Shown: positions 6,879-52,270 of the stretch, piece after piece
How the letters are laid out: each line of letters starts with the position of its first letter
Position numbering within the stretch: the stretch's first letter is position 1
Source of the DNA: an archaeon GW2011_AR19
GTDB taxonomy: Archaea; Nanobdellota; Nanobdellia; Pacearchaeales; GW2011-AR1
DNA length: 63,106 bases
Assembly: GCA_000806015.1 (NCBI GenBank)
Contig: JWKY01000007.1
Coordinates: 1-63,106 of the forward strand
Direction: 5' to 3'
Notes under the pieces: model-generated
The model's database searches: none
The model's input: only the letters and a program-made list of their open reading frames with translations
What the model was told of the DNA's origin: nothing
Program-made: the position numbers and the translations under genes

Positions 6879-7448
6879 ATGATACATATGGTTCAAAATA
6901 AAAACAACTTGGAATTAAAAATAATCTTGGTTTTATTAAAAAACAAAACGCATTTAAGAGAGATAGCCAGAACTCTTAATGAATCCCACTCTACAATCTT
7001 AAGAAAAATTAATGAATTATTAAAAGAAAATGTTCTTGATTATAAGAAAGAAGGTAAAAATAAAATATTTTTTATTAAAAATAATCTAAAAGCCAAGAAC
7101 TATGTTTATTCTGCAGAAATTCATAAATTAAATATGCTTTTAAAAAAACATCTAGAATTATCCATAATATTTGAAGATATTAAGAAAAATTTTCCTAAAA
7201 AGATGATAATCCTGTTCGGGAGTTATGCAAAAGGAATCCCTAAACCCCGCAGCGATATTGATATTTATTTAGAAACAAATGATAATAAAATTAAAAACAA
7301 AATAAAAGAAATAAATTCTAGATTAAGCATAAAAATAGGAAAATTTGACGCCAAATCTTTATTAATAAAAGAAATTATAAAAAACCACATAATTATAAGG
7401 GGTTTGGAGAACTTTTATGAAAGAGTTGACTTTTTTAAAGAAACTTAA
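6879..7448 (+). CDS. wHTH-fused minimal nucleotidyltransferase (MNT-like)
   Basis: N-terminal HTH-like region (LREIARTLNESHSTILRKINELLKENVL) followed by the NTase motif LFGSYAKGIPKPRSDIDIYLE. Confidence 0.65.
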   Translation: MIHMVQNKNNLELKIILVLLKNKTHLREIARTLNESHSTILRKINELLKENVLDYKKEGKNKIFFIKNNLKAKNYVYSAEIHKLNMLLKKHLELSIIFEDIKKNFPKKMIILFGSYAKGIPKPRSDIDIYLETNDNKIKNKIKEINSRLSIKIGKFDAKSLLIKEIIKNHIIIRGLENFYERVDFFKET

Positions 7449-7598
7449 GAAAAGAGGATGAAAAAATTAATTCTGCGAGAACGGATTTTATTAGAATGTT
7501 AAGTTAAACTAAATAATTTAGTGTGGGGTTGGCAATATCTCTCTTTGTTTTAATTTTATTATATAAATCTTTAAAAGAAAGGCATCATTTCCGTAAAA

Positions 7599-8111
7599 AT
7601 GTTCTTTGAAATAGCAAACTTAATCCTCTCCGTTCTTACTTTTATTGTTCTAATAATCTATGCTTATTGTACATATCTTATAGCTAAAGATGTCTATGAA
7701 CCATTTGTATCTTTTTCTTTCAAACAAATTTCCATTTCTCCTACTTCTAAATCTCCCTCACATATAAGTTTTAATATGTTAAATAAAAGCAAGGTGGAAG
7801 TTGAAGTTTTTGGTAAATTATGGTCTAAGGTAGAGGACAAACTTTTTGAGGGTCAAGGAGGATTCTATGGTAATGGATATTCGTGGATTCTTCAGCCGTT
7901 CACCGAAGGTTTTGGACATTTTGAATTGAGAGGATTCAATAACAAAGAAGGAATTGAACTGGGCAAATTTGTTAAAACTAATAAAATTCCTTCAATAAAG
8001 TTTAATTTTCAAATAAAATATAGAAAGGTAGGAAGTAAAAAATGGAAAAAATCTTCTCCTCAAAAATATGCCTATAATTTTGATAAAGAACTTTTATGGT
8101 TGGATGTATAA
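7599..8111 (+). CDS. Hypothetical membrane-anchored protein
   Basis: ORF with an N-terminal TM segment (ANLILSVLTFIVLIIYAYCTYLIA). Confidence 0.4.
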   Translation: MFFEIANLILSVLTFIVLIIYAYCTYLIAKDVYEPFVSFSFKQISISPTSKSPSHISFNMLNKSKVEVEVFGKLWSKVEDKLFEGQGGFYGNGYSWILQPFTEGFGHFELRGFNNKEGIELGKFVKTNKIPSIKFNFQIKYRKVGSKKWKKSSPQKYAYNFDKELLWLDV

Positions 8112-8672: not shown

Positions 8673-9431
8673 TTAATTGTTTTTAAACAATAAGCAAGGA
8701 TTTATCTTAAACTGCAACATTTTTGCAGATTCCCTTCCCGCATCTCCGCCTTTTCTTTGCATCCCTATTTGTCCAATTTTTAAACTGCCTTCATTTGTAA
8801 CTCTTACATCCCCCTGTCCAAAAATATTCATAACCGTGTTAATGTCTTTTAAAACCCATTCATAGCTCTCTTCATTTTTCTTCAAAATAACAAGCATCCA
8901 ATCTGCCGAAAATTTACCTCTTCCTTTTAAAATATCCGATATAATTAAAATCTTATTTTTAGAAAAGAAATTAATAATTTTATCTCTTTCGCTTTCAGAA
9001 ATCTCTGTTAATAACATTCTTCTTGAATCTTTTAATTTTACTTTTTTTCTTGGTTGAATTTTTCCAGTGAATAATTTTAAGATTTCTTCAATCTCTTTTG
9101 AAATATTCCACATTTTAACATATTTGTCAATTTCTCTTTTATCAATTTGATTAAAACCTTGGGAATTGCTAACTAACTTTACTGACAAATTTTCGCAATC
9201 AATTGCGTCTTTTAATTTTATTGTAACTTGAACTTGAACATCTGTTTTATAGCCGCCAGATATTTTAATTGCTTTAACATATTCAATTTCTTCTAAAAAA
9301 TAACCCATAATTTTAAGCCACTCTTGAGCAACTTTATCCTTTTTCCAATTATTAAATCTCTTAATGACTTTTTCTTCATTTCTAAAACCGCCCTTTGCTG
9401 TTTCAGAACCTAATAATTTCTTTTCATTCAT
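8673..9431 (-). CDS. Putative type II restriction endonuclease
   Basis: Sits between the m5C methyltransferase and vsr with 1-nt spacers. The C-terminal ...SAKMLQFKINP recalls, from memory, the end of MspI-type enzymes. Specificity is not established. Confidence 0.5.
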   Translation of the reverse strand: MNEKKLLGSETAKGGFRNEEKVIKRFNNWKKDKVAQEWLKIMGYFLEEIEYVKAIKISGGYKTDVQVQVTIKLKDAIDCENLSVKLVSNSQGFNQIDKREIDKYVKMWNISKEIEEILKLFTGKIQPRKKVKLKDSRRMLLTEISESERDKIINFFSKNKILIISDILKGRGKFSADWMLVILKKNEESYEWVLKDINTVMNIFGQGDVRVTNEGSLKIGQIGMQRKGGDAGRESAKMLQFKINPCLLFKNN

Positions 9432-9432
9432 T

Positions 9433-10488
9433 TTAAGAATTTACTAACTCTGTTTTAATTGAATAACCATATTTCCTTTTAAAAACAGAAGAGACCATTA
9501 CTCTTTCTTTTATCTTTTCTTGATATAAATATTCTTTTATTTTCTTAAATATTGATTCCACAACGGGAACAGAAACACTATTGCCAAATTGTTTATATGC
9601 TTGATATTTATTTACTGGGATTTTAAAATCTTCAGGAAAACCTTGAACTCTTGCGCATTCTCTTGGAGTTAACCTTCTTATTTTTCCATTAATAAAATAT
9701 GCCCCTGTTTTTCCAGCAACCCCTCCCCCATAAGCAGACAAAGTAACTGCATGACCATTTATGCTATAAATTCTTTCTCCTTGCCCCCCATTATTAATTT
9801 GCCCTATTTGAATTAATTTTAATGAAGGAGTTTCATCTCTCTTCCAAAATTTTAAATCAGTTCTTTTTACAATGCAATCCTTAGCTTTTTCATCGTCTTC
9901 AAGAATATCTTTAACAAAAATTTTCTTATAGATTGGTTTTGGAAATTGAAAATCTGTTATTCCTAAATCATTCCTAAAACCCACAATATAAATTCTTTCT
10001 CTTTGTTGCGGAACTCCATAATGACTTGCCGTTAAAACTTGATAAAAAACATTATACTCTAAATCTTCTAAAGTTTTCAAAATAATTTTTAAGGTATTTC
10101 CATGAGAATGTTTTATTAAGTTTTTTACATTTTCTAAAAAAACTACTTTTGGTTTATGGTGTTTTACAATTCTTGCTATATCAAAAAATAATGTTCCTCT
10201 TGTATCTTTAAATCCTCTTTGTTTTCCAGAGATGCTGAATGCTTGACAAGGAAAACCTCCGCATAAAATATCATGTTCGGGGATTTCTCTTTCATTAATT
10301 TTAGTTATATCTCCCTTTGGAATCTCTCCAAAATTTTCTTTATAGGTTATTTGCGCATCTTTATCCCATTCAGAAGAGAATACGCATTCAGCATTTTCTC
10401 TTTCTAAAGCTATTCTAAAACCACCAATTCCCGCAAATAAATCAATAAACCTGATTTTGTTCACCATCTTATTTAGAATAACCAACAC
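9433..10488 (-). CDS. DNA (cytosine-5)-methyltransferase
   Basis: Carries m5C motifs FIDLFAGIGGF, GGFPCQAFS, ENVKNL, QRERIYIVG, TPRECARVQGFP and QFGNSVSVPVV. The likely true start is the internal MVNKIRF. Confidence 0.9.
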   Translation of the reverse strand: MLVILNKMVNKIRFIDLFAGIGGFRIALERENAECVFSSEWDKDAQITYKENFGEIPKGDITKINEREIPEHDILCGGFPCQAFSISGKQRGFKDTRGTLFFDIARIVKHHKPKVVFLENVKNLIKHSHGNTLKIILKTLEDLEYNVFYQVLTASHYGVPQQRERIYIVGFRNDLGITDFQFPKPIYKKIFVKDILEDDEKAKDCIVKRTDLKFWKRDETPSLKLIQIGQINNGGQGERIYSINGHAVTLSAYGGGVAGKTGAYFINGKIRRLTPRECARVQGFPEDFKIPVNKYQAYKQFGNSVSVPVVESIFKKIKEYLYQEKIKERVMVSSVFKRKYGYSIKTELVNS

Positions 10489-16680: not shown

Positions 16681-16917
16681 TTAATCTTTGACTTTATGAA
16701 GAATATAAATTATTGTTCCAAGCACCCATAAGAATACAAAAAGTGATGCTAAGAAATTATCGGCATGAGTAATATTCTGAATTAATTGATATAATTTATA
16801 ACTATCTGGATATTGGACAATACTTTTTTGGATAGTATCATCTATTATCAAACCCACAATCCAAGAGAAAAGCAATAATAGTCCTTCAATAATAACAGGA
16901 TTTTTTATTTTTTCCAT
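16681..16917 (-). CDS. Hypothetical small membrane protein
   Basis: 78 aa with two hydrophobic segments. Confidence 0.35.
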   Translation of the reverse strand: MEKIKNPVIIEGLLLLFSWIVGLIIDDTIQKSIVQYPDSYKLYQLIQNITHADNFLASLFVFLWVLGTIIYILHKVKD

Positions 16918-16982
16918 ATTTAATTTAGAAGTTTAATATTTATGCTTCCTTTTAAATTTAACAGGAAAGATTATTATAAAAT

Positions 16983-17503: not shown

Positions 17504-17669
17504 TCCAATCGGAAAACTCTCTATTTTTTATTTGCTTTTTAGATCTTATTAAAGATTCCATGAATTTTTTATCATTCATTAATTCAATTGATTCTACGAC
17601 AGAATCAAACTCTTCTTTTAATCTAACTAAATCCACTAAAGCGTTTTTATTAATAGATATTTTTTCCAT
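17493..17669 (-). CDS. Putative antitoxin (58 aa, below the ORF-track cutoff)
   Basis: Hand translation gives MEKISINKNALVDLVRLKEEFDSVVESIELMNDKKFMESLIRSKKQIKNREFSDWNEL*. It overlaps the RelE start by 11 nt. Confidence 0.5.
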   Translation of the reverse strand: MEKISINKNALVDLVRLKEEFDSVVESIELMNDKKFMESLIRSKKQIKNREFSDWNEL

Positions 17670-17703
17670 ATTTAGCTTAGAGGTTTAATATTTATATAAC
17701 TTT

Positions 17704-18949: not shown

Positions 18950-19366
18950 TTAAACAATCCTAAAATCTCTCTTAAAAAAAGATTGAACAATTTTTTTCAT
19001 TTCATTTAAGCGCCTTTTTTCTCTTCCAATTAACATTGCTTTATTCATCTTTCCGGCGTTGACAATAATTTCCTCCGGAGTAATTTCAATTCCATTGAAT
19101 GTAATTGGACTTATAATCCTTCTAATAAATTCTCTGGCATCTTCTATGCCTTCCGGCTGAGCAACCACCCTTATTCTTTTTCCTATTATACTACTCATTT
19201 TTTTTAAATTCTCCGCATTTTGTCCAAGAGCTTTTTTAATTAACCTTCTTGGAACGCAAAAAACCAGCATATTGTTATATTCAAAAAAATATCTTGTATC
19301 TACTCTTGTTATTTGCGCAAACAAATTAAGATATCTTAAATCCTGCATATCGAGGATGTTTGTCAT
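18950..19366 (-). CDS. nusA: Archaeal NusA homolog (KH domains)
   Basis: Sits in the conserved position upstream of S12 with KH-like segments (..IGKRIRVV.., ..MLIGREKRRL..). The start is set at the first ATG (MTNILDMQ); the ORF track begins at an upstream TTG. Confidence 0.7.
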   Translation of the reverse strand: MTNILDMQDLRYLNLFAQITRVDTRYFFEYNNMLVFCVPRRLIKKALGQNAENLKKMSSIIGKRIRVVAQPEGIEDAREFIRRIISPITFNGIEITPEEIIVNAGKMNKAMLIGREKRRLNEMKKIVQSFFKRDFRIV

Positions 19367-19480
19367 TAAAAAGATTAACAAGAGTTGTTTATAAATCTTT
19401 TTGCCGTCGGATTATTTGTTAAAAAGGTTAAAACCAAAATAAGAATAAAATTTCTATCTTTTATTCAGAATTAAATTTAT

Positions 19481-19515
19481 TTATTAACACTTTCAACAAT
19501 TTCTTTTTTAGCTAA
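19481..19515. repeat. Third, decayed copy of the rpoA 3' tail (encodes AKKEIVESVNK* on the minus strand)
   Basis: tttattaacactttcaacaatttcttttttagc is compared with the copies at 20716..20763 and 20889..20936. Confidence 0.6.
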
Positions 19516-19617
19516 TTTTTTCTAAAAAAAGAAGATAACCAAAATCTTTTTAAAGTTCAAAGAGGTAATATAATCAATAACTGTCCCGCATGGTTCGCCA
19601 TATTGGGACTTCTTTTT

Positions 19618-19794
19618 TTACATTAAAGTTTTCTTTAAGTTTATTGAACCATTACAACAATTTCTTAAAAGATAAGAAGAACTTTTTGGGAAAAAAACAT
19701 TAATAACTTTTTTATTGTTCTTTTGAACAAGCTTTATTGCAGGAACAAAATCTCCATCTCCAGAAATAATTATTGCGACATCATATAAATTTTT
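19618..19794 (-). pseudogene. NYN/LabA-like domain gene fragment (C-terminal part only, no start codon)
   Basis: Hand translation gives ..YDVAIIISGDGDFVPAIKLVQKNNKKVINVFFPKSSSYLLRNCCNGSINLKKTLM*. This parallels ILISGDADFIPAMQIIKDAGYEVII in the intact NYN gene at 48721. Confidence 0.55.
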
Positions 19795-19854
19795 TTACTA
19801 TATCTATAACTTTTTTAAAATAGGTATATAAACTTTAATTTTTTATAGATTTTT

Positions 19855-20211
19855 ATGACAAACGAAAAAGAAGTTAAAACAATAACAGATAAACAAGAAA
19901 TAAGCAAAATAATTCAAGAAAAAATTAAAGGCAAAAAACTAATTTTTACAAACTATTATTATTTTGGCATTGATAAAAGAGGGATTGCTCATGAGAGAGT
20001 TACTGATATTTTTCCGCAATTTGAAAAAGTAATTGCTATAGAAATAGAAACTTTGAAATTTGGAGATTTAGGTTACGAATTCTTTTACGAAATGGGCAAG
20101 AATATTACTTTTTCTATTGCTACTTGTCTAAAAGACAATAAAATTTTAATAATTCATGCAGTAGAATATAAAAGAAATCTGGAAAAAAGAATCAAAAAAT
20201 TTAAGCGATAA
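19855..20211 (+). CDS. Hypothetical, DUF4258-like putative toxin
   Basis: 118 aa with weak resemblance to the 50394..50723 protein. It is convergent with a DUF2283-like gene. Confidence 0.35.
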   Translation: MTNEKEVKTITDKQEISKIIQEKIKGKKLIFTNYYYFGIDKRGIAHERVTDIFPQFEKVIAIEIETLKFGDLGYEFFYEMGKNITFSIATCLKDNKILIIHAVEYKRNLEKRIKKFKR

Positions 20212-20539
20212 TCAAGGATTGTTTCATTGGGACATTAAAAGGGATTCTTTCTATATTTCCATGTTTTGGTTTTAAGATAAAATAAAGAATATAGCCATCT
20301 TTATATTTTTTAAATATTAATTGAGCGTCTTCTAAATCAGTTAAAGCTATTGAATTTAATCCAAGAGAGGATAAATATTCGGAGATATTTCTAATCTCAA
20401 CATTTACAATTTTGCCATTATTCGCAAAATCAAGAGTTACATTTAAAACTCTCACGCTTCCAACTATTTTTTCATTAATTTTCTTGCATGAAATCATAAA
20501 CCTATCTGAAAATTCATCATAAAAATAATTCTTTTCCAT
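20201..20539 (-). CDS. DUF2283-like protein
   Basis: Has the pattern YFYDEFSDRFMISCK...GKIVNVEIRNISEYL, as in the proteins at 50026 and 56464. Confidence 0.4.
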   Translation of the reverse strand: MEKNYFYDEFSDRFMISCKKINEKIVGSVRVLNVTLDFANNGKIVNVEIRNISEYLSSLGLNSIALTDLEDAQLIFKKYKDGYILYFILKPKHGNIERIPFNVPMKQSLIIA

Positions 20540-20715
20540 TTTTTTGTCTTAATATGTTTAATTTTTAATCTTATTTAAACTTTTTGGAAGAACAATTTTT
20601 GAAAAGATACGCTTTTTCAAAAAGCACAAAAAGAATTTGACAATTATTTGCAGCAGATTAAAGAAATTAAAACCGCTCAAGGATTAGAAAATTTAAAATA
20701 AATTTTTCATTTTAT

Positions 20716-20763
20716 TTATTAACCATCTCAACAATTTCTTTTTTTGCAGTCTTTTTGTCTTTA
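20716..20763. repeat. Second copy of the rpoA 3' tail (encodes KDKKTAKKEIVEMVNK* on the minus strand)
   Basis: tttattaaccatctcaacaatttctttttttgcagtctttttgtcttt includes a 29-nt run identical to 20889..20936. Confidence 0.8.
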
Positions 20764-20781
20764 AACTCAAATTTCCTATTT

Positions 20782-20869
20782 GAGTTCCGCAGGATTTAAA
20801 CTCCCGACCCCGCACGGCTTATTTATTTTTCTTTTTAGTTACTGCCTACCACGAAGTCGCTCGCCGAGG
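20782..20869. repeat. GC-richer mosaic repeat (tRNA T-arm-like fragment plus the GACTTCGTGGTAG motif)
   Basis: ctcccgaccccgcacg and ctaccacgaagtcgctcgcc recur at 29105-29125 and 29215-29240. They also recur in reverse orientation at 39296 and 52085-52140. Confidence 0.65.
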
Positions 20870-20885
20870 ACATGAAAAAAGACTG

Positions 20886-23800
20886 CTACTTATTAACAGC
20901 TTCAACAATTTCTTTTTTTGCAGTCTTTTTGTCTTCTTCTCTTTTTACTAAAGGACCTATAACTTTAACAAGCAACCCTGGAAATCCTGTTCCAACAGGA
21001 ACCGGCTGATTTAAAATTATATTTTCAATAACGCTTTTTAATTTTTCTTTGCTTCCTTTAACTGTAGCATTTACAAATTGTTTTATTGGAGTTTCAAAAG
21101 TTGCCCTCGCAAGAATCGAAGACTTCTGCGCGATTATTCCCATTCTTGTAACTCCTTTAATCTGCCCGGTATTTGTTATAGCATCTGACGCCAGTTTAAG
21201 ATGATGGTCATCAATATCTAATCCCTGAGTATTAAGAACATATTTTATTTCATTAATAATTAATTGTCTTGCAGCTTCAATTCCAAAAACTTCCGCAATT
21301 TCATAAAAATCATTTGAAATAATTTTATCTTTATTTACTTCTTTCATTTTTATTATTTCTTCAATATTTGTTCCGAGAGTTATAATAACAAAATTATTCT
21401 CTTTTTTTAAAATTAAAATTTGTTTAATGCCCTTTACCCCTGAAATTATCGTATTCTTAAATTTCTCTTTTAACAGATAGATTTCTTTGAAAGAAAGAGC
21501 GTCAGAATTCAATACAATCATCTCGTCTTTTTCTTTTGCTTTAAAATTTAACTCATTTAATCTTTCAACTATCTTTTTTATAGTCACATGAGTTTTTTTT
21601 AAAGCTTCTTTGTCAATTTTTATTTCAATTATTTTTTTGCTGAAATTTATTGCAATTTCTGAAGAAACTTCTTTTAATGTCACTTCTTTTATTTTTTCAG
21701 CAAAGATTTCCGCATCTTTTTCATTATTGTATTCTTTATTTAAATAAATCTCCATTTTTGGAGAGGAAGGTTTTTTTCTCGCATCAAATATTTCTATCAG
21801 CCTTGGCAATCCCATAGTTACCTGCATCTCTGCAACACCTGCAAAATGGAATACATTTAATGCCATTTGTGTTGAAGGCTCTCCAAATGACTGGGCAGTT
21901 ACCAGTCCTAAAGCTTCACCCGGAACAATATTTCCGCCGGTATGCAATTCTGAAACATCTTTATTATCGTCGCCATATTTAAATTCTATTATTCTATTAT
22001 TGCTGTCTCTTACTGTTCCGTCATATTCTGCTCTTAAATCCTGGAAAGCGTTTGCAAGTCTTCTATATAAATAACCAGATTTTGGAGTTCTTAATGCAGT
22101 ATCCATTAAACTATCCCGTCCTGTAATAGAGCCAAAGAAAAATTCATCTGGCCTCAATCCTTTGATAAATGAATTTTTGATAAACCCTCTTGCTTTAGGA
22201 GATAAATCATTTTTCTTAAAAAAAGGAAGAGTTCTCTGAGTAAAACCAATATCAATTCTTTTACCCCACAATGCTTGTTGTCCGACACAGCAAGCCATTT
22301 GAGTAATATTTAAAATATTCCCGCCGCCTCCGGCTTTAATCATGCTATTTACCGGATTTTCTTTCGGGAATTTTTCTTTTACAATAGAACCAATTTTTGT
22401 TCTTACTTCATTTAAAACCTGAAGAATTTTTATTTCTCTGGATTCTTCTGAAGTCTTGCCGGGAATAATTTCAAGACTTTTATTTTCATAAGATTCAATA
22501 ATTTCTTTTGTTCTTTTTTCAGATTTTTTGATAATTTCTTCTGTTTCTTCAATAACACTTTCTTTTAAATCAAAATCTTCAACGCATGCAGTTATTCCAT
22601 GTTGAGTCAAATATGTTTTTCCAAGATTAAATGCTTTGGTAAGCGCATCAAAAGCTTCTTCTCTCCCAAAATCTTTGTCAATTTTTTTAATCAGCGCGCC
22701 ATCTTCAACGCCAAAAGTTGTTTTATCAATAACTCCTTTAATAATTTCTCCGTCTTTTATTTTAATTGAATCATTAGAAAAATCAATTTTTGGAAGAATC
22801 ATTGAAAATAGTTCAGTTCCTGAAATCTTTTTCTTTACAGGCTCAAAATCCAAGCCAGATTGATATAATAATTGGTTTGCATCTTCTTTTGAGAATTCAT
22901 TTAATCCTAAAAGATAATTTCCCGTTATAGAATCCTGCACACATCCGATTAAATTAGTATTATTTTTTGGAGACATCAAATTTTTTTTAACATCAAGCAA
23001 AATTTTTGCTTCTGCGCGCGCTTCTTCTGTTTGCGGACTGTGAATGTTCATTTCATCGCCGTCAAAATCAGCGTTATAAGGAGTGCAGACAGCAGGATGC
23101 ATTCTAAATGTTTTGCCCGGAAGAACTTTTACAAAATGGGCCATTAAACTTCCTCTATGCAGGCTCGGATGTCTGTTGAATAAAACAATATCTCCATCCT
23201 GTAAATGCCTTTCTACAATATATCCCTGAGAAATTTCAGCAATTATTTCTTCTTTTAATTCCTGAGAAATTTTTTTTCTTTTTCCATCCGGCCTCATAAT
23301 ATAATTAGCGCCGGGATAATCTTCTCCTTTTTCAATAAGTTTTATTAATTTTTTTATGTTAAGATCATTAACAGTCTCGGCAACAGTAATAATTTTTGCA
23401 ATTTCATAAGGAATGCCGACTTCATTAATTTTAAGAAAAGGATCAGGAGAAATAACTGTTCTGCCTGCATAATTTACTCTCTTACCGGCGATATTTTTTC
23501 TAATTCTTCCTTCCTTGCCTTTGATTCTTTCTGTAATCGTTTTTAATGGCTGACCGCTTCGGTGTCTTGCTGGAGGAATTTTTGAAACAGTATTATCAAA
23601 AAAAGTTGTGACATGAAACTGCAGCAAATCCCATAAATCTTCAATAATAACCTCGGGAGCGCCCGCATTTAAATTTTCCCACAACCTCTGATTAGCTCTT
23701 ATAATATCTGATAATTTATGCGTTAAATCATCTTCTGAACGTTCGCCGTTTTCTAAAATGATGCTTGGCCTTACAGTTACTGGCGGAACTAATAAAGAAG

Positions 23801-24371
23801 TTAGAATAGCCCATTCAGGTCTGAATGTCCCGCAATTAATTTCAATTTTTTCAAGTTCTTCATCCGGAACATTAACAAGAGTTTCTCTTATTTCTGTCGG
23901 GAAAAGTCTTTTTTTGCCTTTATAAAAAGTTGTTGGTTTGTCTAATTTAACTTTTTCCTGAAGACTCAAGCAGTAAGGGCATTTTTTCTTGTCCCTCGCT
24001 CTTTTTGCTCTTTTACTTGGAGAATATTTTTCCAATTCTTTTTCTTCAAGCATCAACTTGCCGCAACTTTGACAAAAAGCTCTTAAAACTAATTCAACTA
24101 AAGGAATATATTTCAAATGCATTATTGATCTGGCTAAATCAATACTTCCGGAATGTCCAAGACATTCTTTAAGTCTGTCTCCGCAGGTTCTGCATCTTAC
24201 TCCGGGATCAATTGCTCCAAGCCTTAAATCCATTAATCCGCCGTCAACAGGATATCCATCTATATCATAAAGTTCCGGCGTCACAATTTTTGCAACTGAA
24301 AGTTTTTTTATCTCTTCCGGACTAAGTAAAGAAAAACTTATTTCTCCTATTTTTTTTCTTATTGGTTTCAT
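20886..24371 (-). CDS. rpoA: RNA polymerase subunit A, unsplit (A' and A'' parts in one 1161-aa ORF)
   Basis: The N-terminal zinc region reads RCRTCGDRLKECLGHSG and the catalytic site reads NADFDGDEMN. It also has the bridge-helix region ITQMACCVGQQ and the A''-type trigger loop AQSFGEPSTQMALNVFHFAGVAE..GLPRLIEIFDARK. No stop codon occurs between these parts. Confidence 0.9.
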   Translation of the reverse strand: MKPIRKKIGEISFSLLSPEEIKKLSVAKIVTPELYDIDGYPVDGGLMDLRLGAIDPGVRCRTCGDRLKECLGHSGSIDLARSIMHLKYIPLVELVLRAFCQSCGKLMLEEKELEKYSPSKRAKRARDKKKCPYCLSLQEKVKLDKPTTFYKGKKRLFPTEIRETLVNVPDEELEKIEINCGTFRPEWAILTSLLVPPVTVRPSIILENGERSEDDLTHKLSDIIRANQRLWENLNAGAPEVIIEDLWDLLQFHVTTFFDNTVSKIPPARHRSGQPLKTITERIKGKEGRIRKNIAGKRVNYAGRTVISPDPFLKINEVGIPYEIAKIITVAETVNDLNIKKLIKLIEKGEDYPGANYIMRPDGKRKKISQELKEEIIAEISQGYIVERHLQDGDIVLFNRHPSLHRGSLMAHFVKVLPGKTFRMHPAVCTPYNADFDGDEMNIHSPQTEEARAEAKILLDVKKNLMSPKNNTNLIGCVQDSITGNYLLGLNEFSKEDANQLLYQSGLDFEPVKKKISGTELFSMILPKIDFSNDSIKIKDGEIIKGVIDKTTFGVEDGALIKKIDKDFGREEAFDALTKAFNLGKTYLTQHGITACVEDFDLKESVIEETEEIIKKSEKRTKEIIESYENKSLEIIPGKTSEESREIKILQVLNEVRTKIGSIVKEKFPKENPVNSMIKAGGGGNILNITQMACCVGQQALWGKRIDIGFTQRTLPFFKKNDLSPKARGFIKNSFIKGLRPDEFFFGSITGRDSLMDTALRTPKSGYLYRRLANAFQDLRAEYDGTVRDSNNRIIEFKYGDDNKDVSELHTGGNIVPGEALGLVTAQSFGEPSTQMALNVFHFAGVAEMQVTMGLPRLIEIFDARKKPSSPKMEIYLNKEYNNEKDAEIFAEKIKEVTLKEVSSEIAINFSKKIIEIKIDKEALKKTHVTIKKIVERLNELNFKAKEKDEMIVLNSDALSFKEIYLLKEKFKNTIISGVKGIKQILILKKENNFVIITLGTNIEEIIKMKEVNKDKIISNDFYEIAEVFGIEAARQLIINEIKYVLNTQGLDIDDHHLKLASDAITNTGQIKGVTRMGIIAQKSSILARATFETPIKQFVNATVKGSKEKLKSVIENIILNQPVPVGTGFPGLLVKVIGPLVKREEDKKTAKKEIVEAVNK

Positions 24372-24386
24372 GGGTATTTTTTAAAT

Positions 24387-24638
24387 TTATTTTATTGCCT
24401 CTTTCAATCTTTTTTCTAAAAAATTAATAGTTCCTTTATTATATCCGCCAATGTAAATACATCTACTTTTTGGACTTGATTTAATTATCGCTCCAGAAAA
24501 TTTATATTGAGAAAGACCACGAGAGGTAGTTTGATAAGTTGATGTTCCTGCGAATAACCATGCATCTGCTCTATTAAATAATTCTTCTGATTTTAATTTA
24601 ATTCTGTAATAAATTCTTTTTTCTATATTTTTTGTCAT
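24387..24638 (-). CDS. Small unknown protein (83 aa), second gene of a two-gene cassette between rpoB and rpoA
   Basis: ORF lying 2 nt after the upstream partner. Its C-terminal YIGGYNKGTINFLEKRLKEAIK is paralogous to the partner's KIEGYSKENMEFIQKTLESLV. Confidence 0.5.
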   Translation of the reverse strand: MTKNIEKRIYYRIKLKSEELFNRADAWLFAGTSTYQTTSRGLSQYKFSGAIIKSSPKSRCIYIGGYNKGTINFLEKRLKEAIK

Positions 24639-24640
24639 TT

Positions 24641-24922
24641 TTATTCTATGTCTCCTTCGCTTAAAATAATTGCACGTCTTTTTTCTGAATTTACAAGCGA
24701 TTCAAGAGTTTTTTGGATAAATTCCATATTCTCTTTGCTGTATCCTTCAATCTTAAATTTTTTTAAATCACTATAAGCAGTAATTTTTTCACTATATATC
24801 TTAAAAGTTAAATTTCCACCTACATTTTTTTCTTTTCCGTTTGTTTCTTTAACATAAGTTCCTAACCAATGAAGTCCATCATCATATTGCCTATCTGTTT
24901 TAGCTCTAATTGTTTCCATCAT
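24641..24922 (-). CDS. Small unknown protein (93 aa), first gene of the cassette between rpoB and rpoA
   Basis: ORF co-directional with the RNAP genes. Confidence 0.5.
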   Translation of the reverse strand: MMETIRAKTDRQYDDGLHWLGTYVKETNGKEKNVGGNLTFKIYSEKITAYSDLKKFKIEGYSKENMEFIQKTLESLVNSEKRRAIILSEGDIE

Positions 24923-24974: not shown

Positions 24975-27900
24975 TTATTCATATTTATTTTTTAATTTAA
25001 AAGTTGTGTTTATGTGCATTCCCTTTAATTCTTCGACGAGAAGTTTAAAAGCATATGAAATTTCAATAATTTCAACATCTTCACTTTCACATTTTGGACA
25101 CATTATTTTTCCTCTTATCTTATCGTCTATTGCTGTTGAACCGCATCTAACGCAAATTGGAAGAATTATTTTATCTGAATCATATCTTTCTTTTAATAAT
25201 AATGAAGACCCATGAGCAATCAATGCCTGTTGTTCCATTTCACCAAGTCTTAATGCGCCGCCGCGAGACCTTCCTTCAATTGGCTGTCTTGTTAATAATG
25301 CAATTTTACCCAAAGCTCTTCCGTGCATTTTATTGCTAACCATATATTTTAATTTTAAATAATATAAATTTCCTAAAAATATTTTTGACACCATTTTTTT
25401 CCCGGTAATTCCATTGTACATTGTTTCTTTCCCATCAAATCTAAATCCTAATTCTTCTAATTGATCTTCTAATTCTTTTTTGTCTGACCCAAAAAAAGAA
25501 GTCCCGTCTATAATTTTTCCTTTTAATGAACCAACTTTGCCGGCCAATAATTCAAGTAAATATCCTACAGTCATACGGCTTGGTAATCCATGAGGGTTAA
25601 AAATTATATCCGGCTTATTTCCTTTTGAAGTAAAAGGCATATCTTCTTCAGGAACAATTAATCCAATAACTCCTTTTTGTCCATGCGATGTTGCAAATTT
25701 GTCGCCTAATTCAGGAATACGCTGGTCGCGGGTTTTAACCTGAATAACTTTATTTCCTTCATTATCTTTTGTTATAAAAACAGCGTCAACAATTCCTTTT
25801 TCTTCCTGCCTCATTGTTACGCTGGATTCTTTTTTTGTTCTTATTGAAATATCTCTTGCTTCTGATAAAAATTTAGGAGGAGAAACTTTTCCAATCAAAA
25901 TTTCTCCTTCATTTATTTCTGCTTCAGGATAAACAAGACCATCGCTTTCCAAATAACGATATAATTTTTCCATTCTATATCCTGAAGTATCTTTTTCAGG
26001 AATGGCAATTTCATCTTTTAGCCCGCCGGCATAATTCATTTCAATAGCAGAATATGGTCTGAAGTAAAAGCTTCGTCCAACTCCTCTGTCCACTCCGCCT
26101 TTATTCAGCACAAGAGCGTCTTCCATATTATACCCTTCATAAGTCATAATACCGACGATTAAATTTTGTCCTGCAGGATAAATGTCAAGAGCATCATAAA
26201 CAAAACTCCTGACAATTGGTTTTTGAGGATATTGTAAAATTGAAACATCTGTATCTAATCTGCATAAATAATTAGCAGAATACAAACCTAAAGCCTGTTT
26301 TTGCGTCTTGCTCCCGCGATTTAAACGAGAGCTTTGATTATGATTTCCGTATGGAACTAAACTTGTAATTGCGCCAAATAAAGAAATAGGGTCAATTTCA
26401 AGATGAGTATGTTCTGGAGTTAATTCTTCTTCAAATAATGAAACAAGCGCATTTTCTTCTTCAGACGCGTCAATATATTCAATTAATCCTTTTTCAATTA
26501 AATCTTCCCAATTCAAATTTCCTTGCTGTATTTGAATTAAGTGATTGTTGTTTATTCTTGGAATTCCATTATCAACGATAATTAAAGGTCTTAATACTCT
26601 TCCGGCTTCACTTGAAAATCTAATTGTTTCAAATCCATGATCATTTCTTATACTAATTTGCTCCGGCAATCCTCCTTCACGTCTTTTTTCTCTTAATCTT
26701 TTTGCAAATTCGTCGTTATCTTTTACAGTTCCAATAAACCTTCCATTTAAAACAACGTCTTTTCCTTCAATTGCTTCTTTATCTAATCCTTCTTCTTCTA
26801 AAACTTTAATTATTTCTTCTTCATTCATTTTTGTTCTTGTAGAAACTTTGCTTAATATTGCCAAATTTTTTCTTAAACCAATTTCAGTTCCTTCAGGAGT
26901 TTCAATTGGACAGAATCTTCCATAATGCGTCGGGTGAAGTGTTCTTGCTTTGAAATTTTCCTGATCAGACGGAAGCATACTTGAAATTCTCTGCAACTGA
27001 GAAATTGTTGCTAAATAATTTGTTTTATCCATGTTTTGTGTTATTCCGGATCTCTCGCCAGTCCATGCCCCCGTTGCAATAGCAGATTCAACTCTATGAG
27101 AAAACAGCGTCGATTTTGCTAAAACTTTTATTGAAAAATAATTTTTCCTTTTTACTGATTTTTGAAGAGAATATTTAATATCTCTTATTAAAATTCCTAA
27201 ATTTACTTTGAATAAAGTTGCTAAAAGATCTCCTGAAAGTCTGACTCGCTTGTTTGCATAATGGTCTTTGTCTGTTTTTAATTCCGGGTTGTCTTTTGCA
27301 ATTAAATAATGTTTTATTAATTTGCATAAAGTAATTGCTTTTTTTGTTCTATCTTCTTTTTTCTGCCCGATATGCGGAAAAAGATATGAATCAATTCTTG
27401 ATTTTACTCTTTCAACAATTTCTTTTTTTGTTCCCTGTAAATTTGTCTTTTCAGCAATATACATTATCGCATCTTCTTTTGTAACAATATTGACAAATTC
27501 ATAAAGATTGACAATAACGCTGTCATTTTCTTTTCCAATATATTTTGCAATATCTGATTCTTTTGTTAATCCAAGAGATTTTAATAAAACAATTGCAGGT
27601 AAATCTTTGAATCTGCTGAATGAAAGATTAAACAATCCATCTTTTCCCTCGTTGAGAGTTATTGGAATTCTGTAAGTTCCTCTCAAAGAAAACATTTTCA
27701 GGACTAATACCCCGTTTTTTCCGTACTCTATAAAAAATTGGTTTTCAGCCAAGTCTTCTGCCATAATCATGACTCTTTCATTTCCTTTAATTATAAAATA
27801 CCCGCCGGGATCTTTGGGATCATTATAATTTGCTATTAATTCTTCACGGGACATTCCATGAGTATTGCATGCTTTGCTTTTTACCATAATCGGAATTTTT

Positions 27901-28813: not shown

Positions 28814-28930
28814 GGCTCCGTAGCTCAGTTTGGTAGAGCACCGGACTTTTATGCGAAAACAAGTTTTCACGTGCTTCGTGAAAATCACAAAGCAATCCGG
28901 GTGTCGCGGGTTCAAATCCCGTCGGGGCCA
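28814..28930 (+). tRNA. tRNA-Lys (anticodon TTT) with a 43-nt intron at position 37/38 (about 28852..28894)
   Basis: The hand fold gives acceptor GGCTCCG/CGGGGCC, D arm GCTC-AGTTTGGTA-GAGC and anticodon stem CCGGA/TCCGG. The anticodon loop is CT-TTT-A[intron]A and the T arm is GCGGG-TTCAAAT-CCCGT. Confidence 0.85.
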
Positions 28931-28958
28931 TTTATCATATTGAAAATATGCTTGTCTC

Positions 28959-29011
28959 GGATTTGAAGAGCGACGTGTCGTGGGCGAGCGTTTTGACTTT
29001 GAGAAACTTTT
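28959..29011. repeat. Dispersed repeat with an inverted partner at 36794..36840
   Basis: A 30-nt stretch, gggcgagcgttttgactttgagaaactttt, is identical to the reverse complement of the partner. Confidence 0.8.
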
Positions 29012-29037
29012 GTTTTTATTTTTTTATTGATAACAAA

Positions 29038-29072
29038 GTCAGGACGGGAGTAAAATCCCGTCGGGGCCATTT
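29038..29072 (+). repeat. Duplicated tRNA-Lys 3' fragment (att-like direct repeat)
   Basis: aaatcccgtcggggccattt (29053..29072) is identical to 28914..28933 of the tRNA gene and its flank. Confidence 0.8.
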
Positions 29073-29074
29073 TA

Positions 29075-29250
29075 TATTTAATCGGGATTTGAACAATTCA
29101 AATCCTACTCCCGACCCCGCACGCGGGTTTTTTTAGAAAGGGATCACTACATTCACCCTCGTTCGTCTGTGAGCCAAACGAAAGAAACGCTACAAAATAA
29201 AAGAAAATTGCAATACCCGCTACCACGAAGTCGTTCGGTCGGGGCTATTT
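29075..29250. repeat. GC-richer mosaic repeat block
   Basis: It starts with the palindrome gggatttgaacaattcaaatcc, built from the tRNA T-loop sequence and its complement. It continues with ctcccgaccccgcacg and ends with ctaccacgaagtcgttcggtcgggg, as at 20782..20869. Confidence 0.65.
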
Positions 29251-35092: not shown

Positions 35093-35216
35093 AATAAATT
35101 TTCATACTGAAAATTCATAATCACAAATCGTTGTTTGCTCAAATACCCTAAAACAAGGGCATAAATAAATTTTCATACAACTAATTCATAATCACAAATT
35201 GTTATTTGTTCAAATA
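35093..35216. repeat. Two diverged copies (about 35093..35145 and 35165..35216) of the 49-nt repeat, inverted relative to 37245..37342
   Basis: ttcatactgaaaattcataatcacaaatcgttgtttgctcaaata matches the reverse complement of tatttgaacaaacaacgatttgtgattatgaatttttagtat. Confidence 0.8.
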
Positions 35217-35221
35217 AATTT

Positions 35222-35752
35222 TTATGCTAAAAATTTATAATCAACTCTTGTCCTGCAAGGCAATTTTGGTTTAAGTTGTTTTATTATTTTTCTTGTAAAG
35301 ATTACTGCTTTTTCATTTGGAACAGCAATAAAAAAAATCCTGTCTCCGGGTTTAACAACCGCGGCTTTGCCAATAGACTTGCCAAAAGATAATTGCATTC
35401 CTGTCTGCATTCTATCTGCTCCAGCTCCTGTAATCATTTTATTTTCTCTCTGAATCTGGTGCGGATAAGGAATAATTTTAAAATAAAATTGACCGGGAAA
35501 TTTCTCCTCCAATTCTTTATGAAGATGCCGCCTGCAGGCTTCAATAGCATTATGTCTTATCTGAACTTTTTCGCAGGAAACCAGCGTTAAATGATGTTTT
35601 AATTTAGAAAGATTATTATTCCCCATCGTGAATTTTGTAATGCTCTGCGGCGGAATTGTTTTAATATATGCCTTATTTTTTATACTGCTATTTCTAGTGA
35701 AGGGAGTAACGTTCTTTTTTGAATACGAATTTGCTTTTCTTAAGGTCGCCAT
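35222..35752 (-). CDS. rpl10e: Ribosomal protein L10e (uL16)
   Basis: Contains ..IRHNAIEACRRHLHKELE......IPYPHQIQRENKMITGAGADRMQTGM...GK..G.AA.V.PG..I. Confidence 0.85.
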   Translation of the reverse strand: MATLRKANSYSKKNVTPFTRNSSIKNKAYIKTIPPQSITKFTMGNNNLSKLKHHLTLVSCEKVQIRHNAIEACRRHLHKELEEKFPGQFYFKIIPYPHQIQRENKMITGAGADRMQTGMQLSFGKSIGKAAVVKPGDRIFFIAVPNEKAVIFTRKIIKQLKPKLPCRTRVDYKFLA

Positions 35753-37244: not shown

Positions 37245-37342
37245 ATTATGAATTTTTAGTATAAAAATTTATTTGAACAAACAACGATTTGTGATTATGA
37301 ATTTTTAGTATAAAAATTTATTTGAACAAACAACGATTTGTG
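37245..37342. repeat. Perfect tandem duplication (2 x 49 nt) upstream of recQ
   Basis: The unit attatgaatttttagtataaaaatttatttgaacaaacaacgatttgtg occurs twice and contains a TATA-like gtataaaaattt. Confidence 0.9.
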
Positions 37343-37386
37343 AGTGATTAAACAAAATATGCAAATATTAAGGAATTATAAAAAAG

Positions 37387-39126
37387 ATGGAAAATTTATT
37401 AAAACAATATTTTGGCTATGATGAATTCAGACCAATGCAGTCAGATATTATAAAAAATACTCTGGAAAAAAAAGATTCTCTTGTGATTATGCCGACTGGC
37501 GGGGGAAAATCTATCTGTTATCAGCTTCCCACATTAAAATTTGAAGGACTTACTTTAGTTATATCACCGCTTATATCTCTGATGAAAGATCAAGTAGATG
37601 GATTAAAAGCAAATGGCATTAATGCGGAGTATATCAATTCCTCACTTTCACAGGAAGAAATTATGGACATTCAAAAAAGAATTCAGGGAAAAAAAGTAAA
37701 ATTGCTTTACATTGCTCCGGAGAGATTAGCATCAGAGGATTTTATAATATTTTTAAGCATGTTAGAGATAAGCTTGATTGCGATTGACGAAGCGCATTGC
37801 ATTTCTGAGTGGGGGCATGATTTTCGGCCTGAATACAGAAATCTCAAATCACTAAGAATAATATTTCCGGAATCTCCGATTATAGCATTAACTGCAACAG
37901 CAACGGAAAAAGTAAGAACAGATATATTAAAACAATTATCATTAAGAGATCCTGAAATATTTATTTCAAGTTTTAACAGGAAAAATTTAAATTTAAGAGT
38001 TGTAGAAAAAAAGAAATCCATGGAGAGAATTGTAAAAATATTAAAAGAGTACAAAGACAAATCAGCAATTATTTATTGCTTCTCCCGTAAAGATTCAGAA
38101 AATATTGCGGAAAAATTAAGATACAACGGATTTAATGCTCTTCCTTATCATGCGGGACTTAATAATGAAATAAAAAAACACAATCAGGAATTATTTATTA
38201 AAGATAAAGTAAATATTATTGTAGCAACAATTGCTTTTGGAATGGGAATTAATAAACCAGATGTTAGATTAATTATTCATCACACTTTTCCAAAAACACT
38301 TGAAGGATATTATCAGGAAATAGGCAGAGCTGGCAGGGACGGGCTTCCAAGTGATTGCATTCTTTTTTATTCAAGAGGAGATAAAAGAAAGCACGAATTT
38401 TTTATTGACAAGATAGAAAGTCAGCCAACTCAAAATAATGCAAGAGCTAAATTGCTTCAAGTTATGAATTATTGTGAAAATAATTCCTGCAGAAGAAAGC
38501 AGACACTTAAATATTTTGGAGAGGATTTTTTGGAAGATAATTGCGGAGCCTGCGATTCTTGTTTGAAATTATTAGAACCCATAAGAATAAATCAAAAAAA
38601 ATTAATTCCAAAAGAATTAAAAAAACAAATGGAATATAATCCGGAACTATTTGAGGAATTAAGGATTCTAAGAAAGCAAATTGCTGTTCAAAAGAATGTC
38701 CCTCCATTTATAATCTTCGGAGATGTTTCTTTAAGGGAAATGGCTGGCTCTTTTCCAAAAGATAATGAAGAATTTTTAAATATTAAAGGAGTTGGACAGC
38801 AAAAGTTAGAAGATTTTGGAGAATTGTTTTTAAAAGTGATAAATAATTATGCTGACGAAAAGAGAAATAATAATACTAATCTTTTAAACTCTAATAAAGA
38901 AAATAACTTAAAAGAAAACTATCATAACCGATTAGAAGAAATTAAACAAAATTTTCCAAATGCTTATGAGTCTTGGAAAGAAGAAGACGATATAAAATTA
39001 AAAACATTAAATTCTGAAAATAAAACTATTTCTGAAATTGCGCAAATTTTAAAACGCCAGCCAGGAGCAATTAGATCAAGATTAATGAAGTTTAGATTGG
39101 TGTTTAACTCAACCACGCTTGGGTGA
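37387..39126 (+). CDS. recQ: RecQ-family DNA helicase with Zn-binding/RQC region, HRDC domain and C-terminal HTH-like tail
   Basis: Contains MPTGGGKSICYQLP, IDEAHCISEWGHDFRP, TATAT and YYQEIGRAGRDG. It also has the Zn cluster CRR..L.YFGE....CGACDSC and the HRDC-like segment LFEELRILRKQIAVQKNVPPFIIF. The last codons run into a repeat. Confidence 0.85.
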   Translation: MENLLKQYFGYDEFRPMQSDIIKNTLEKKDSLVIMPTGGGKSICYQLPTLKFEGLTLVISPLISLMKDQVDGLKANGINAEYINSSLSQEEIMDIQKRIQGKKVKLLYIAPERLASEDFIIFLSMLEISLIAIDEAHCISEWGHDFRPEYRNLKSLRIIFPESPIIALTATATEKVRTDILKQLSLRDPEIFISSFNRKNLNLRVVEKKKSMERIVKILKEYKDKSAIIYCFSRKDSENIAEKLRYNGFNALPYHAGLNNEIKKHNQELFIKDKVNIIVATIAFGMGINKPDVRLIIHHTFPKTLEGYYQEIGRAGRDGLPSDCILFYSRGDKRKHEFFIDKIESQPTQNNARAKLLQVMNYCENNSCRRKQTLKYFGEDFLEDNCGACDSCLKLLEPIRINQKKLIPKELKKQMEYNPELFEELRILRKQIAVQKNVPPFIIFGDVSLREMAGSFPKDNEEFLNIKGVGQQKLEDFGELFLKVINNYADEKRNNNTNLLNSNKENNLKENYHNRLEEIKQNFPNAYESWKEEDDIKLKTLNSENKTISEIAQILKRQPGAIRSRLMKFRLVFNSTTLG

Positions 39127-39330
39127 GTTTGTTGAAAAACTTCCTGTTTTTCATTCCCCATTTAAGTGTAAGCCTCCTTTAACTCGACAACGCTTTGGCG
39201 AGTTTGTCAAAAAATTTCCTATTTTTTGTTCGTTTTTAACTCAACCACGCTTGGGCGAGCGATTTCGCGAGACAAACTCCTCCCCATTATTCCGAGCGAG
39301 GTCGGGAGTAGAGTTTGTTCATACATCATT
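39103..39330. repeat. Tandem GC-richer repeat block (units at about 39103, 39178 and 39234) plus a tRNA T-arm-like fragment
   Basis: The three units read tttaactcaaccacgcttgggtgagtttgttgaaaaacttcctgtttttc, tttaactcgacaacgctttggcgagtttgtcaaaaaatttcctatttttt and tttaactcaaccacgcttgggcgagcgatttcgcgag. The block ends with gagcgaggtcgggagt. Confidence 0.8.
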
Positions 39331-47736: not shown

Positions 47737-47807
47737 GGTCCGTTAGTCCAATGGCAGAACAGCTCGTTTACACCGAGCAAACACAAGTTCGATTCTTGTA
47801 CGGACCA
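47737..47807 (+). tRNA. tRNA-Val (anticodon TAC), no intron
   Basis: The hand fold gives acceptor GGTCCGT/ACGGACC, anticodon stem GCTCG/CGAGC with loop TT-TAC-AC, and T arm ACAAG-TTCGATT-CTTGT. The D stem is imperfect. Confidence 0.8.
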
Positions 47808-52009: not shown

Positions 52010-52126
52010 TTCAAAAAATATATTTGTTAATTCAAAAACATAAATATATTTTGGAACGAGGTTTCTTATTAACTTCGAATCCGAGCGACTTCACGGAAGG
52101 TAAATTATTTTTATCAATCTCTGAGT

Positions 52127-52153
52127 GAGGTCGGGAGTTCGGCTCGCGCATTC
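52127..52153 (+). repeat. Decayed tRNA-Gly 3' fragment, copy 2
   Basis: In gaggtcgggagttcggctcgcgcattc, the segment ggctcgcgcattc is identical to the end of the tRNA gene plus its flank. Confidence 0.75.
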
Positions 52154-52175
52154 ATGGATTTGTAAAATCCATATT

Positions 52176-52270
52176 TAGTTGAGGTTGGCTAAATATTTTA
52201 AAGCGAAAAGGAAAGGTAGCGTTAGGAAAACCTTGGTTTTCCCACGGTTCGAAGAGAGGCTCGCGCATTT
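52176..52270 (+). repeat. Mosaic repeat element ending in tRNA-Gly 3' fragment copy 3
   Basis: The sequence is ggttggctaaatattttaaagcg...aggaaaaccttggttttcccacggttcgaagagaggctcgcgcattt. Confidence 0.75.

Follow-up and report, generated by a model that had tools for sequence, protein, structure and literature searches.

RpoA tail copies downstream of rpoA in a Pacearchaeales archaeon point to a probable recurrent insertion site for small cassettes without a recombinase

Integration into the 3′ end of a housekeeping gene is reportedly seen with phage 21 and e14 at icd of Escherichia coli, where the replacement end differs mainly synonymously and the original end comes to lie displaced downstream. 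Among archaea, 14 of 68 Thaumarchaeota elements reside in the 3′-distal parts of protein genes, some of them replacing the stop codon and some forming tandems (Krupovic et al. 2019, PMC6563490), and integrons have been described from archaea as well (Ghaly et al. 2022, PMC9668308). Here, we analysed a stretch of 63,106 nucleotides (nt), called the window below, of contig JWKY01000007.1 (GCA_000806015.1) from archaeon GW2011_AR19 (Pacearchaeales, DPANN), in which the RNA polymerase gene rpoA is followed by further copies of its own 3′ end. We propose, with a probability of roughly 0.65, that the last ~15 codons of rpoA are a recurrent insertion site, at which incoming DNA supplies a new tail and the old tail is displaced downstream.

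The likeness of this locus to the Thaumarchaeota elements (PMC6563490) lies in the protein-gene end as target, the direct repeats, the replacement of codons plus stop, and a site re-used to give tandem arrays; a protein-gene target, which an initial annotation of this sequence had put forward as an application of the logic of tRNA-targeting elements, was in fact already documented. Whereas those proviruses, integrative plasmids or casposons each encode an integrase or casposase, the units here measure 0.1-1.4 kb and lack a recombinase, the target is rpoA in a DPANN archaeon, and up to six site copies bound single-gene cassettes. The element at icd, by contrast, is said to be a single prophage with an integrase and a replacement of ~165 nt, as opposed to ~45-nt sites and many small cassettes here. 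With the Tycheposons of Prochlorococcus (described by Hackl et al., bioRxiv 10.1101/2020.12.28.424599), the locus would share hypervariable islands, repeated integration at few gene 3′ ends (tRNAs in their case), decayed remnants, partial target repeats and cargo modules without an integrase; they are said to differ in having identifiable tyrosine recombinases and tRNA targets instead of a protein-gene tail. The integration logic is hence already known, and what is distinctive are rpoA as the target in DPANN, the tiny recombinase-less units, the reshuffled arrays of up to six sites, and the coding signature kept in the displaced copies.

In the window (G+C content 29.8%), rpoA belongs to a minus-strand operon in the archaeal order rpoH-rpoB-rpoA-nusA-S12-S7-...-EF2. 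Three copies of the RpoA tail, named T1 (genic), T2 and T3, all lie on the rpoA strand (Table 1). T1 and T2 form a 49-nt repeat with 90% identity and a 174-nt period (E 3.6e-13), whose unbroken identical run spans 34 nt (20902-20935 = 20728-20761) rather than the 29 nt first given for it. All five mismatches (A/G, G/A, C/T, T/G and G/A) fall into the terminal 15 nt that follow the 34 identical ones, and by our own arithmetic this clustering in one terminal 15 of 49 nt has a probability of ~0.003-0.005 under uniform decay. T3, initially read as 11 codons, extends to 14; its identity is 91% with T2 over 34 nt (E 5e-6) and 93% with T1 over 29 nt (E 2e-5). While its left arm is of a cassette type (GAAAAAATTAGCTAAA), 2 nt shorter than that of rpoA and hence out of frame, its right arm, ESVNK plus stop, is the same as the genic tail of relatives.

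Table 1. Coordinates of rpoA, its tail copies and associated features (window positions unless a related locus is named).
Feature	Coordinates	Strand	Description
rpoA	20886..24371	-	fused A'+A'' RNA polymerase large subunit, 1161 amino acids (aa); target gene; Rpb1 domains 1-5
T1	20886-20936	-	genic tail ..EDKKTAKKEIVEAVNK plus stop; stop TAG at 20886-20888
Insertion 1	20764..20885	-	122 nt, non-coding, between T1 and T2
A..B stem-loop in insertion 1	A 20849-20862, B 20800-20809	-	9 predicted pairs CGACUUCGU/GCGGGGUCG, G-U included
Second hairpin in insertion 1	20764-20786	-	follows A..B stem-loop
T2	20712-20762	-	displaced tail KDKKTAKKEIVEMVNK plus stop
112-aa open reading frame (ORF)	20201..20539	-	cargo, T2-T3 interval; weakly DUF2283-like
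118-aa ORF	19855..20211	+	cargo; family unassigned; convergent with 112-aa ORF, 11-nt overlap
5′-truncated NYN gene	19523..19793	-	last 58 codons, stop 19618-19620; 3′ hairpin 19583-19609 and trailer
T3	19477-19521	-	displaced tail KKLAKKEIVESVNK plus stop, in frame, 14 codons
nusA-like KH-domain gene	18950..19366	-	marks downstream edge of hotspot in window strain
A..B elements, window	20797-20866(-), 29107-29236(-), 39257-39309(+), 52083-52138(+)
A..B elements, relatives	L006 7073-7143; L087 5925-6044
Scars after tRNA 28814-28930	28931..29248	+	A-like/B-like pair, 20-nt tRNA 3′-end copy, inverted A..B (29107-29236)
A..B element with 16-nt copy TCGGCTCGCGCATTCA (52140-52155) of tRNA 3′ end	52083..52155	+	tRNA at 51882-52009

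Such similarity might be put down to chance in A/T-rich DNA or to misassembly, an explanation to which we give next to no credence. In fact, the initial warning about the A/T-rich core was justified as far as an exact match inside rpoB goes (20 nt of core at 27409-27430; the 17-mer AAAAAAGAAATTGTTGA at 27412), and the 17-20-nt core taken alone is weak evidence of tail copies. Yet this rpoB match has neither the flanking ..GT.AA.AA.TA[AG] nor an in-frame stop. Moreover, the 17-mer has six matches at ≤2 mismatches in the window where 0.83 are expected, and 0 of 100 shuffles reached six. As controls in 159 related loci, none of 121,390 peptides (upstream plus opposite strand) matched the own tail at >5/14 residues, and downstream tail copies at 9-13/14 residues were found in four of these loci. 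The tail structure also recurs at 99-100% identity in independent assemblies of different samples (at least eight assemblies) and therefore is not an assembly artefact, with orthologues of T3 at the same place and strand in L165 (10626), L167 (1019), L168 (848) and L397 (5034), these codes denoting related loci. The three tail copies that the initial annotation had pointed out are thus confirmed as real and far above chance, A/T-richness included.

To place the window among its relatives, we collected 160 related loci by two collection scans with RpoA C-terminal alignment. Identical RpoA proteins occur on contigs of Rifle groundwater metagenomes, and the nearest named relatives are metagenome-assembled genomes (MAGs) of Pacearchaeota/Nanoarchaeota. 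Where nusA was found downstream (140 loci), 85 loci had an rpoA-nusA gap of 2-147 nt, and the other 55 one of 193-5818 nt; a length of 30-140 nt is usual among the related loci. The short gaps are empty sites. All the closest relatives (87-91% identity at the RpoA C-terminus) carry variable DNA directly after rpoA, and toxin-antitoxin-like genes occupy the gap in other strains. The interval is therefore variable among relatives rather than ancestral and invariant, with empty sites alongside differently filled ones bounded by tail copies. As regards rpl30e, its reported absence holds, though not as a peculiarity of this locus: the gene is nowhere in the clade (related loci), and the short-class gaps are too small for it, so its absence is ancestral to the clade.

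Within the filled sites, there is an array of small recombinase-less cassettes whose order varies between the strains compared (L165, L167, L086, the window and L397). L165/L085 have six tail copies on the rpoA strand (7036, 7078, 8454, 8496, 9650 and 10626), enclosing an AAA_14/DUF4143 ATPase, itself bracketed by a 105-nt near-identical repeat, a 161+57-aa block and an NYN gene; a Fic gene follows the last copy, and then come the DedA and IleS genes. Three tail copies in L086 enclose a three-ORF block and a different NYN gene. In L167, the arrangement is rpoA-T-[65 aa + NYN]-T, with the NYN unit directly after rpoA; although placed elsewhere in the array, its NYN protein has the same sequence as that of L165 (100% identity). 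Between rpoA and T3, L397 agrees with the window at 99.3% identity, and past T3 it has the genes found behind T in L167 in place of nusA. The G+C-rich stem-loop element of insertion 1, hereafter A..B, occurs twice in tandem in L087 with the same stop-codon junction as in the window ('TAGcagtcttttttcatgt.ctcggcGAGCGACTTCG'), and once in L006, 170 nt past the stop. In L005, a second, degenerate tail lies 42 nt past the stop.

These arrays resemble integrons in being ordered series of small, mostly single-gene cassettes without a recombinase, each ending in a similar site, in their toxin-antitoxin or accessory cargo, and in the presence of the same cassette at different array positions among strains. 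They are unlike integrons in that no intI adjoins the array, insertion is into the coding end of a gene instead of attI, and T is a direct copy of a coding tail without hairpin symmetry or R''/R' GTTRRRY cores. An integron proper was rejected, as the array starts inside rpoA with no tyrosine recombinase nearby, and so was attC, with no dyad symmetry of T or matching inverse core next to it on inspection and no convincing inverted repeat around the T copies. An integron-like cassette platform of this Pacearchaeota genus, lacking a linked integrase and using conserved genes (rpoA, recQ and tRNAs) as anchors at their coding 3′ ends, is a tentative extension that we regard as rather unlikely. There, a cassette would be a portable half-site encoding a working C-terminus, the A..B stem-loops would be accessory or minimal mobile units, and a recombinase in trans or host short-homology recombination would insert, stack and shuffle the cassettes.

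The alignment of 19 tail copies of the window clade, 12 of them non-genic (11 distinct haplotypes), provided a signature of tail replacement. All copies have an invariant 14-nt core, AAAGAAATTGTTGA (≤2 mismatches in four degenerate copies), a left arm that is either the one of rpoA itself or of the cassette type, and a right arm that always reads E-x-V-N-K-stop. None of the 12 non-genic copies has lost the stop codon, and their codon differences from the consensus are 21 synonymous and 3 nonsynonymous, the minimum changes by codon position 3:1:2 being 8:1:1 (binomial p = 0.0034). Silent copies would be expected to lose such a synonymous pattern, unless their divergence took place in a period of use as the genuine end of RpoA. 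The tail motif (..KKTAK.[EK][IV]VE.[VT]NK) is conserved across the clade, and RpoA ends in a complete ..VE.VNK plus stop in every strain. Here, we noticed that the six lineages most closely related to the window (L005, L006, L085/L165, L086, L087 and L167) have ESVNK as their genic tail, as in T3, while the genic EAVNK of the window is unique among close relatives and T2 reads EMVNK; both of these latter endings occur as genic tails in other lineages (P0105 and L107). Right arms differ synonymously and travel with the downstream DNA. Moreover, T1 and T2 are identical up to the core with the mismatches after it, as predicted by a crossover in or near the core, and the same pattern is found in L100. 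The last five codons and stop of T1 thus probably came in with insertion 1. Empty and filled sites, the ESVNK of T3 and the 21:3 signature all uphold the suggestion in the initial annotation that the rpoA 3′ end is an insertion point for DNA with replacement tails.

How such a site might work can be outlined as follows. The last ~45 nt of rpoA, i.e. the core plus the last five codons and the stop, would act as an attachment-type recombination site, T, and DNA with one T copy would recombine with the genic T in a Campbell-type insertion. The resulting order would be rpoA, a chromosomal left arm with core and incoming right arm, the cargo, an incoming left arm with core and the old right arm, and then the old downstream DNA. 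The RpoA C-terminus would stay complete, now being coded by the incoming right arm, and the former tail would be moved downstream as a silent copy. Repeated rounds would stack cassettes, which T-by-T recombination could reshuffle or delete. A circular intermediate and a conservative crossover are presumed in this scheme, and the putative enzyme could about equally be a trans-acting site-specific recombinase or host recombination acting on 14-35 nt of identity. At least two insertion rounds are visible in the window. The older one would have left the block ending at T3, and the younger one would be the 122-nt A..B element, delivering the present EAVNK tail. The insertions, initially described as nested, are instead serial, with a second interval that is composite.

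That composite T2-T3 interval consists of the convergent 112/118-aa ORF pair and the truncated NYN gene. The pair has the convergent layout initially reported; as to families, the 112-aa ORF is only weakly DUF2283-like (E 2.3e-4, below the Pfam cut-off), and the 118-aa ORF gave no DUF4258 match even at E up to 10. Among the assemblies listed, the 112-aa protein is found after rpoA in every carrier. The fragmentary nature of the NYN gene, also noted initially, is borne out by the 94% identity of window 19793-19473 (NYN fragment, trailer and T3) to the full-length NYN gene of L085 (8836-9351) and its 3′ flank. No tail copy lies at the junction of the ORF pair with the truncated NYN gene (19793), which therefore marks a separate illegitimate event; in the proposed older round, the pair would have been joined in this way to the NYN unit. 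This 171-aa NYN family of Pacearchaeota is 75-100% identical over many contigs, and its genes always come with the same long 3′ hairpin (GTCCCAATATGGCGAACCATACGGGAC) regardless of context (window minus strand, L165, L167, L169, L171 and L173). A possible fourth tail copy at 19647-19666 was rejected, being the native NYN C-terminus that is present in L085 too. Rfam gave no family in the rpoA-nusA gap, either for the window at gathering cut-offs or for 19380-20960 at E up to 10. For tRNAs, ARAGORN found one in the window (47737-47807), and Rfam found that one and two intron-containing others. The G+C-rich spacer was rejected as a tRNA or tRNA half, with no ARAGORN or Rfam tRNA in the gap.

Several observations weigh against the proposed insertion site. 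Most lineages with enlarged gaps show no tail duplicate, and L006 and L087, in which A..B follows rpoA, have no second tail in the sequence available. Among the cargo, NYN is an ordinary chromosomal gene without T in other Pacearchaeota. Whereas the type of stop codon goes with the downstream flank, two flank groups have ESVNK codons that vary independently, which implies a crossover without a fixed position or an additional role of gene conversion. Pfam scans of the gap and of 40 larger window ORFs detected no domain of an integrase, transposase or Cas1, and the 78 gap ORFs of relatives showed no integrase or recombinase (best 25 of 43 Pfam families matched), the exception there being one IS1595 transposase (L127). 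Neither was a XerA-type homologue detected in 1.59 Mb of loci with one XerA-type query. Logan contigs from 12 runs, which miss rare forms, gave no T-by-T, excision or circle junction, though A/B and the T core are multicopy branch points in them. No viral or plasmid contig in IMG/VR has the tail pattern or an A..B pair, single 15/16-mer matches being present only at ≥40% G+C, as against 30% for this genome, and read as chance. Of what characterises integrative elements, target-matching direct repeats, gene reconstitution by element sequence and empty sites in relatives are present, and an integrase carried by the element was not found in any of these searches of gap, window and related loci. 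The units, initially read as integrating elements, are cassettes or scars and not recognisable elements of that kind.

The missing integrase would be no obstacle to homology-facilitated illegitimate recombination between diverged Pacearchaeota genomes, which we think unlikely on balance. A linear donor with the 3′ part of rpoA, its own tail and downstream genes would be anchored by homologous recombination inside rpoA, and its far end would be joined illegitimately just before the recipient stop, leaving the last 15-50 nt of the recipient as a pseudo-tail; att site, circle and dedicated enzyme would be unnecessary. Consistent with this, right arms resemble real tails elsewhere (EAVNK and EMVNK), ordinary chromosomal genes such as NYN are among the cargo, the left extent of the distal copies varies from 14 to 49 nt, insertion 1 is the native rpoA 3′ flank of L087, and the ORF pair/NYN junction shows that illegitimate joins occur at this locus. 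However, the same left arm with its 2-nt deletion follows two unrelated cargos (ATPase and NYN), and therefore belongs to a unit instead of independent illegitimate joints. The distal copies all contain <50 nt of rpoA, a long rpoA fragment never being left behind, and T1/T2 are identical at 34/34 nt up to the switch point, even though five of the 15 nt beyond it differ in the putative donor. The same architecture at tRNA 3′ ends (see below) also speaks against this explanation and for a recurrent insertion site.

Separate tail duplicates are found in two or three other, independent lineages with ~75% RpoA identity, namely L012, L100 and perhaps L160. L012 has a ~110-nt repeat, made up of the tail, a promoter and the first 8 codons of the next ORF, which brackets one ORF and a G+C-rich piece. 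In L100, a 47-nt insert separates two tails that share 18 identical nt, followed by K/G, three synonymous changes and TAA/TGA, and L160 has a possible 29-nt insert between tails. Repeats like the one in L012, with its intergenic promoter and codons of the following ORF, and tail copies only 42 nt apart in L165 and L005 would suit a model in which the rpoA 3′ end was duplicated locally, through slippage, unequal crossing-over or tandem duplication, with later divergence and with unrelated DNA accumulating between the copies. This is quite improbable in our estimation: the mismatches are limited to the right arm and synonymous sites rather than evenly spread, inter-copy content is wholly different among strains otherwise 99% identical, and the odd one out is the genic tail of the window, not the distal copies.

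Members of the A..B family share the conserved 15-mers GAGCGACTTCGCGAG and GAGCGAGGTCGGGAG (in insertion 1, A = GAGCGACTTCG.. and B = G.GCG.GGTCGGGAG), are G+C-rich with 9-bp pairing around a variable A/T-rich loop, and always lie just past gene 3′ ends. Unitigs from the source community show A/B and the T core at 3-20x the depth of their flanks, with several alternative continuations. The A:B helix has 9 conserved base pairs with one compensatory change, and folding the A..B region by itself gave no unusual stability (z = -1.4); an RNA gene was rejected, as a single compensatory pair is too little covariation. The REP/BIME repeats of bacteria are said to be similar, i.e. short, multicopy, mosaic G+C-rich stem-loops just past gene 3′ ends, and unlike A..B not to be flanked by a duplicated upstream gene end; no RAYT-type gene was seen here.

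Both tRNAs with duplicated 3′ ends in the window contain introns and have short inserts between the copies (Table 1). The 3′ end of the tRNA at 28814-28930 recurs as a 20-nt copy (AAATCCCGTCGGGGCCATTT, 29052-29071), and that of the tRNA at 51882-52009 has, besides its 16-nt copy, a further duplicate, GGCTCGCGCATT, at 52257-52268 (region 52010-52270). Such duplicated ends with short inserts would, as expected, fit decayed integrations, and A..B between a gene 3′ end and its copy at the two tRNAs is the classical att-site signature. As a general trait, small inserts in this genome are bordered by short repeats derived from their targets.

Also at recQ, the tail (..FNSTTLG plus stop) together with ~24 nt downstream is repeated twice directly after the gene (39097-39259), with synonymous differences and the stop codon lost, adjoining an A..B element. 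The recQ tail is found once more, inverted, at 47891-47950, at the start of the ORF after tRNA-Val.

Staggered strand cuts are the way in which Cas1 duplicates the CRISPR repeat. Likewise, a transposase or casposase-like integrase cutting the strands 30-50 nt apart could have produced the tail copies as target-site duplications, with A..B as the transposon. A..B elements are indeed flanked by direct target repeats at three window sites, and casposons insert at the 3′ ends of tRNA and EF-2 genes, in tandem as well (PMC6563490). Nevertheless, we hold this to be very improbable, since copies made in this way are identical when formed, whereas the right arms here have diverged in a manner that respects the codons; the repeats range from 16 to 105 nt, neither terminal inverted repeats nor Cas1 or PolB were seen, and cassettes other than A..B are bounded by the same repeats. 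On these grounds, i.e. repeat lengths, diverged right arms, and no terminal inverted repeats or Cas1, a casposon or other DNA transposon was rejected. A diversity-generating retroelement was likewise discarded, with no reverse transcriptase domain in the tested window ORFs and mismatches not confined to template adenines.

DPANN archaea have tiny genomes, few recognisable mobile elements and wide strain variation. Read as a recurrent insertion site, the locus would offer them a concrete route for the gain of accessory or defence-type genes, with NYN, AAA ATPase and Fic cassettes stacked behind an essential gene, rpoA itself never being damaged by the stacking. The displaced tails would be a readable record of past insertions, and their synonymous divergence a clean mark of tail replacement. 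Should a trans-acting recombinase or host recombination over ~14-35 nt indeed suffice, the duplicated ends of tRNAs and recQ in the window could have arisen by the same logic, as might similar unexplained short repeats in other streamlined genomes, and duplicated gene tails would be a simple marker of integration hotspots in MAGs.

On the other side of rpoA, the interval to rpoB (24387-24922, minus strand) holds two small ORFs of 93 and 83 aa without a known family. L165 (3476-3576) lacks both and has only a 17-codon remnant whose start resembles that of the 83-aa ORF. Duplicates of the rpoB tail were looked for in this rpoB-rpoA gap, and none were seen.

Further downstream in the operon, a 38-nt direct repeat at 92% identity (16906-16943 and 17658-17695; a TATA/promoter-like box plus start codon, ATGGAAAAAATA) brackets a 752-nt block between S7 and EF-2 with a ParE-type toxin, a putative antitoxin and a small membrane ORF. 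As an empty site for this ParE block, L004 was rejected and left unused, being a recombinant or chimeric contig: it (7172-7789) is 100% identical to the window from rpoA to S12, and then has S7 at 88.6% and unrelated downstream genes. At the S12/S7 junction (~18217), the window lacks 97 nt that are present in the otherwise identical contig L002, which removes the last S12 codons and ~30 N-terminal S7 codons; the loss is either genuine, by deletion at a short repeat (AATTATTG/AATTAATTTTG), or the result of misassembly.

Elsewhere in the window, 79-nt inverted repeats, 90% complementary and containing tandem copies internally, at 35093-35265 and 37245-37343 bracket ~2 kb with an L10e/L16 ribosomal protein gene. 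A complete type II restriction-modification pair is found at 8673-10488 (minus strand), where an R.HinP1I-like restriction endonuclease adjoins a C-5 cytosine methylase. Lastly, the ORF at 46307-46861 (minus strand) has sigma-70 regions 2 and 4, i.e. an ECF-type bacterial sigma factor on an archaeal contig.

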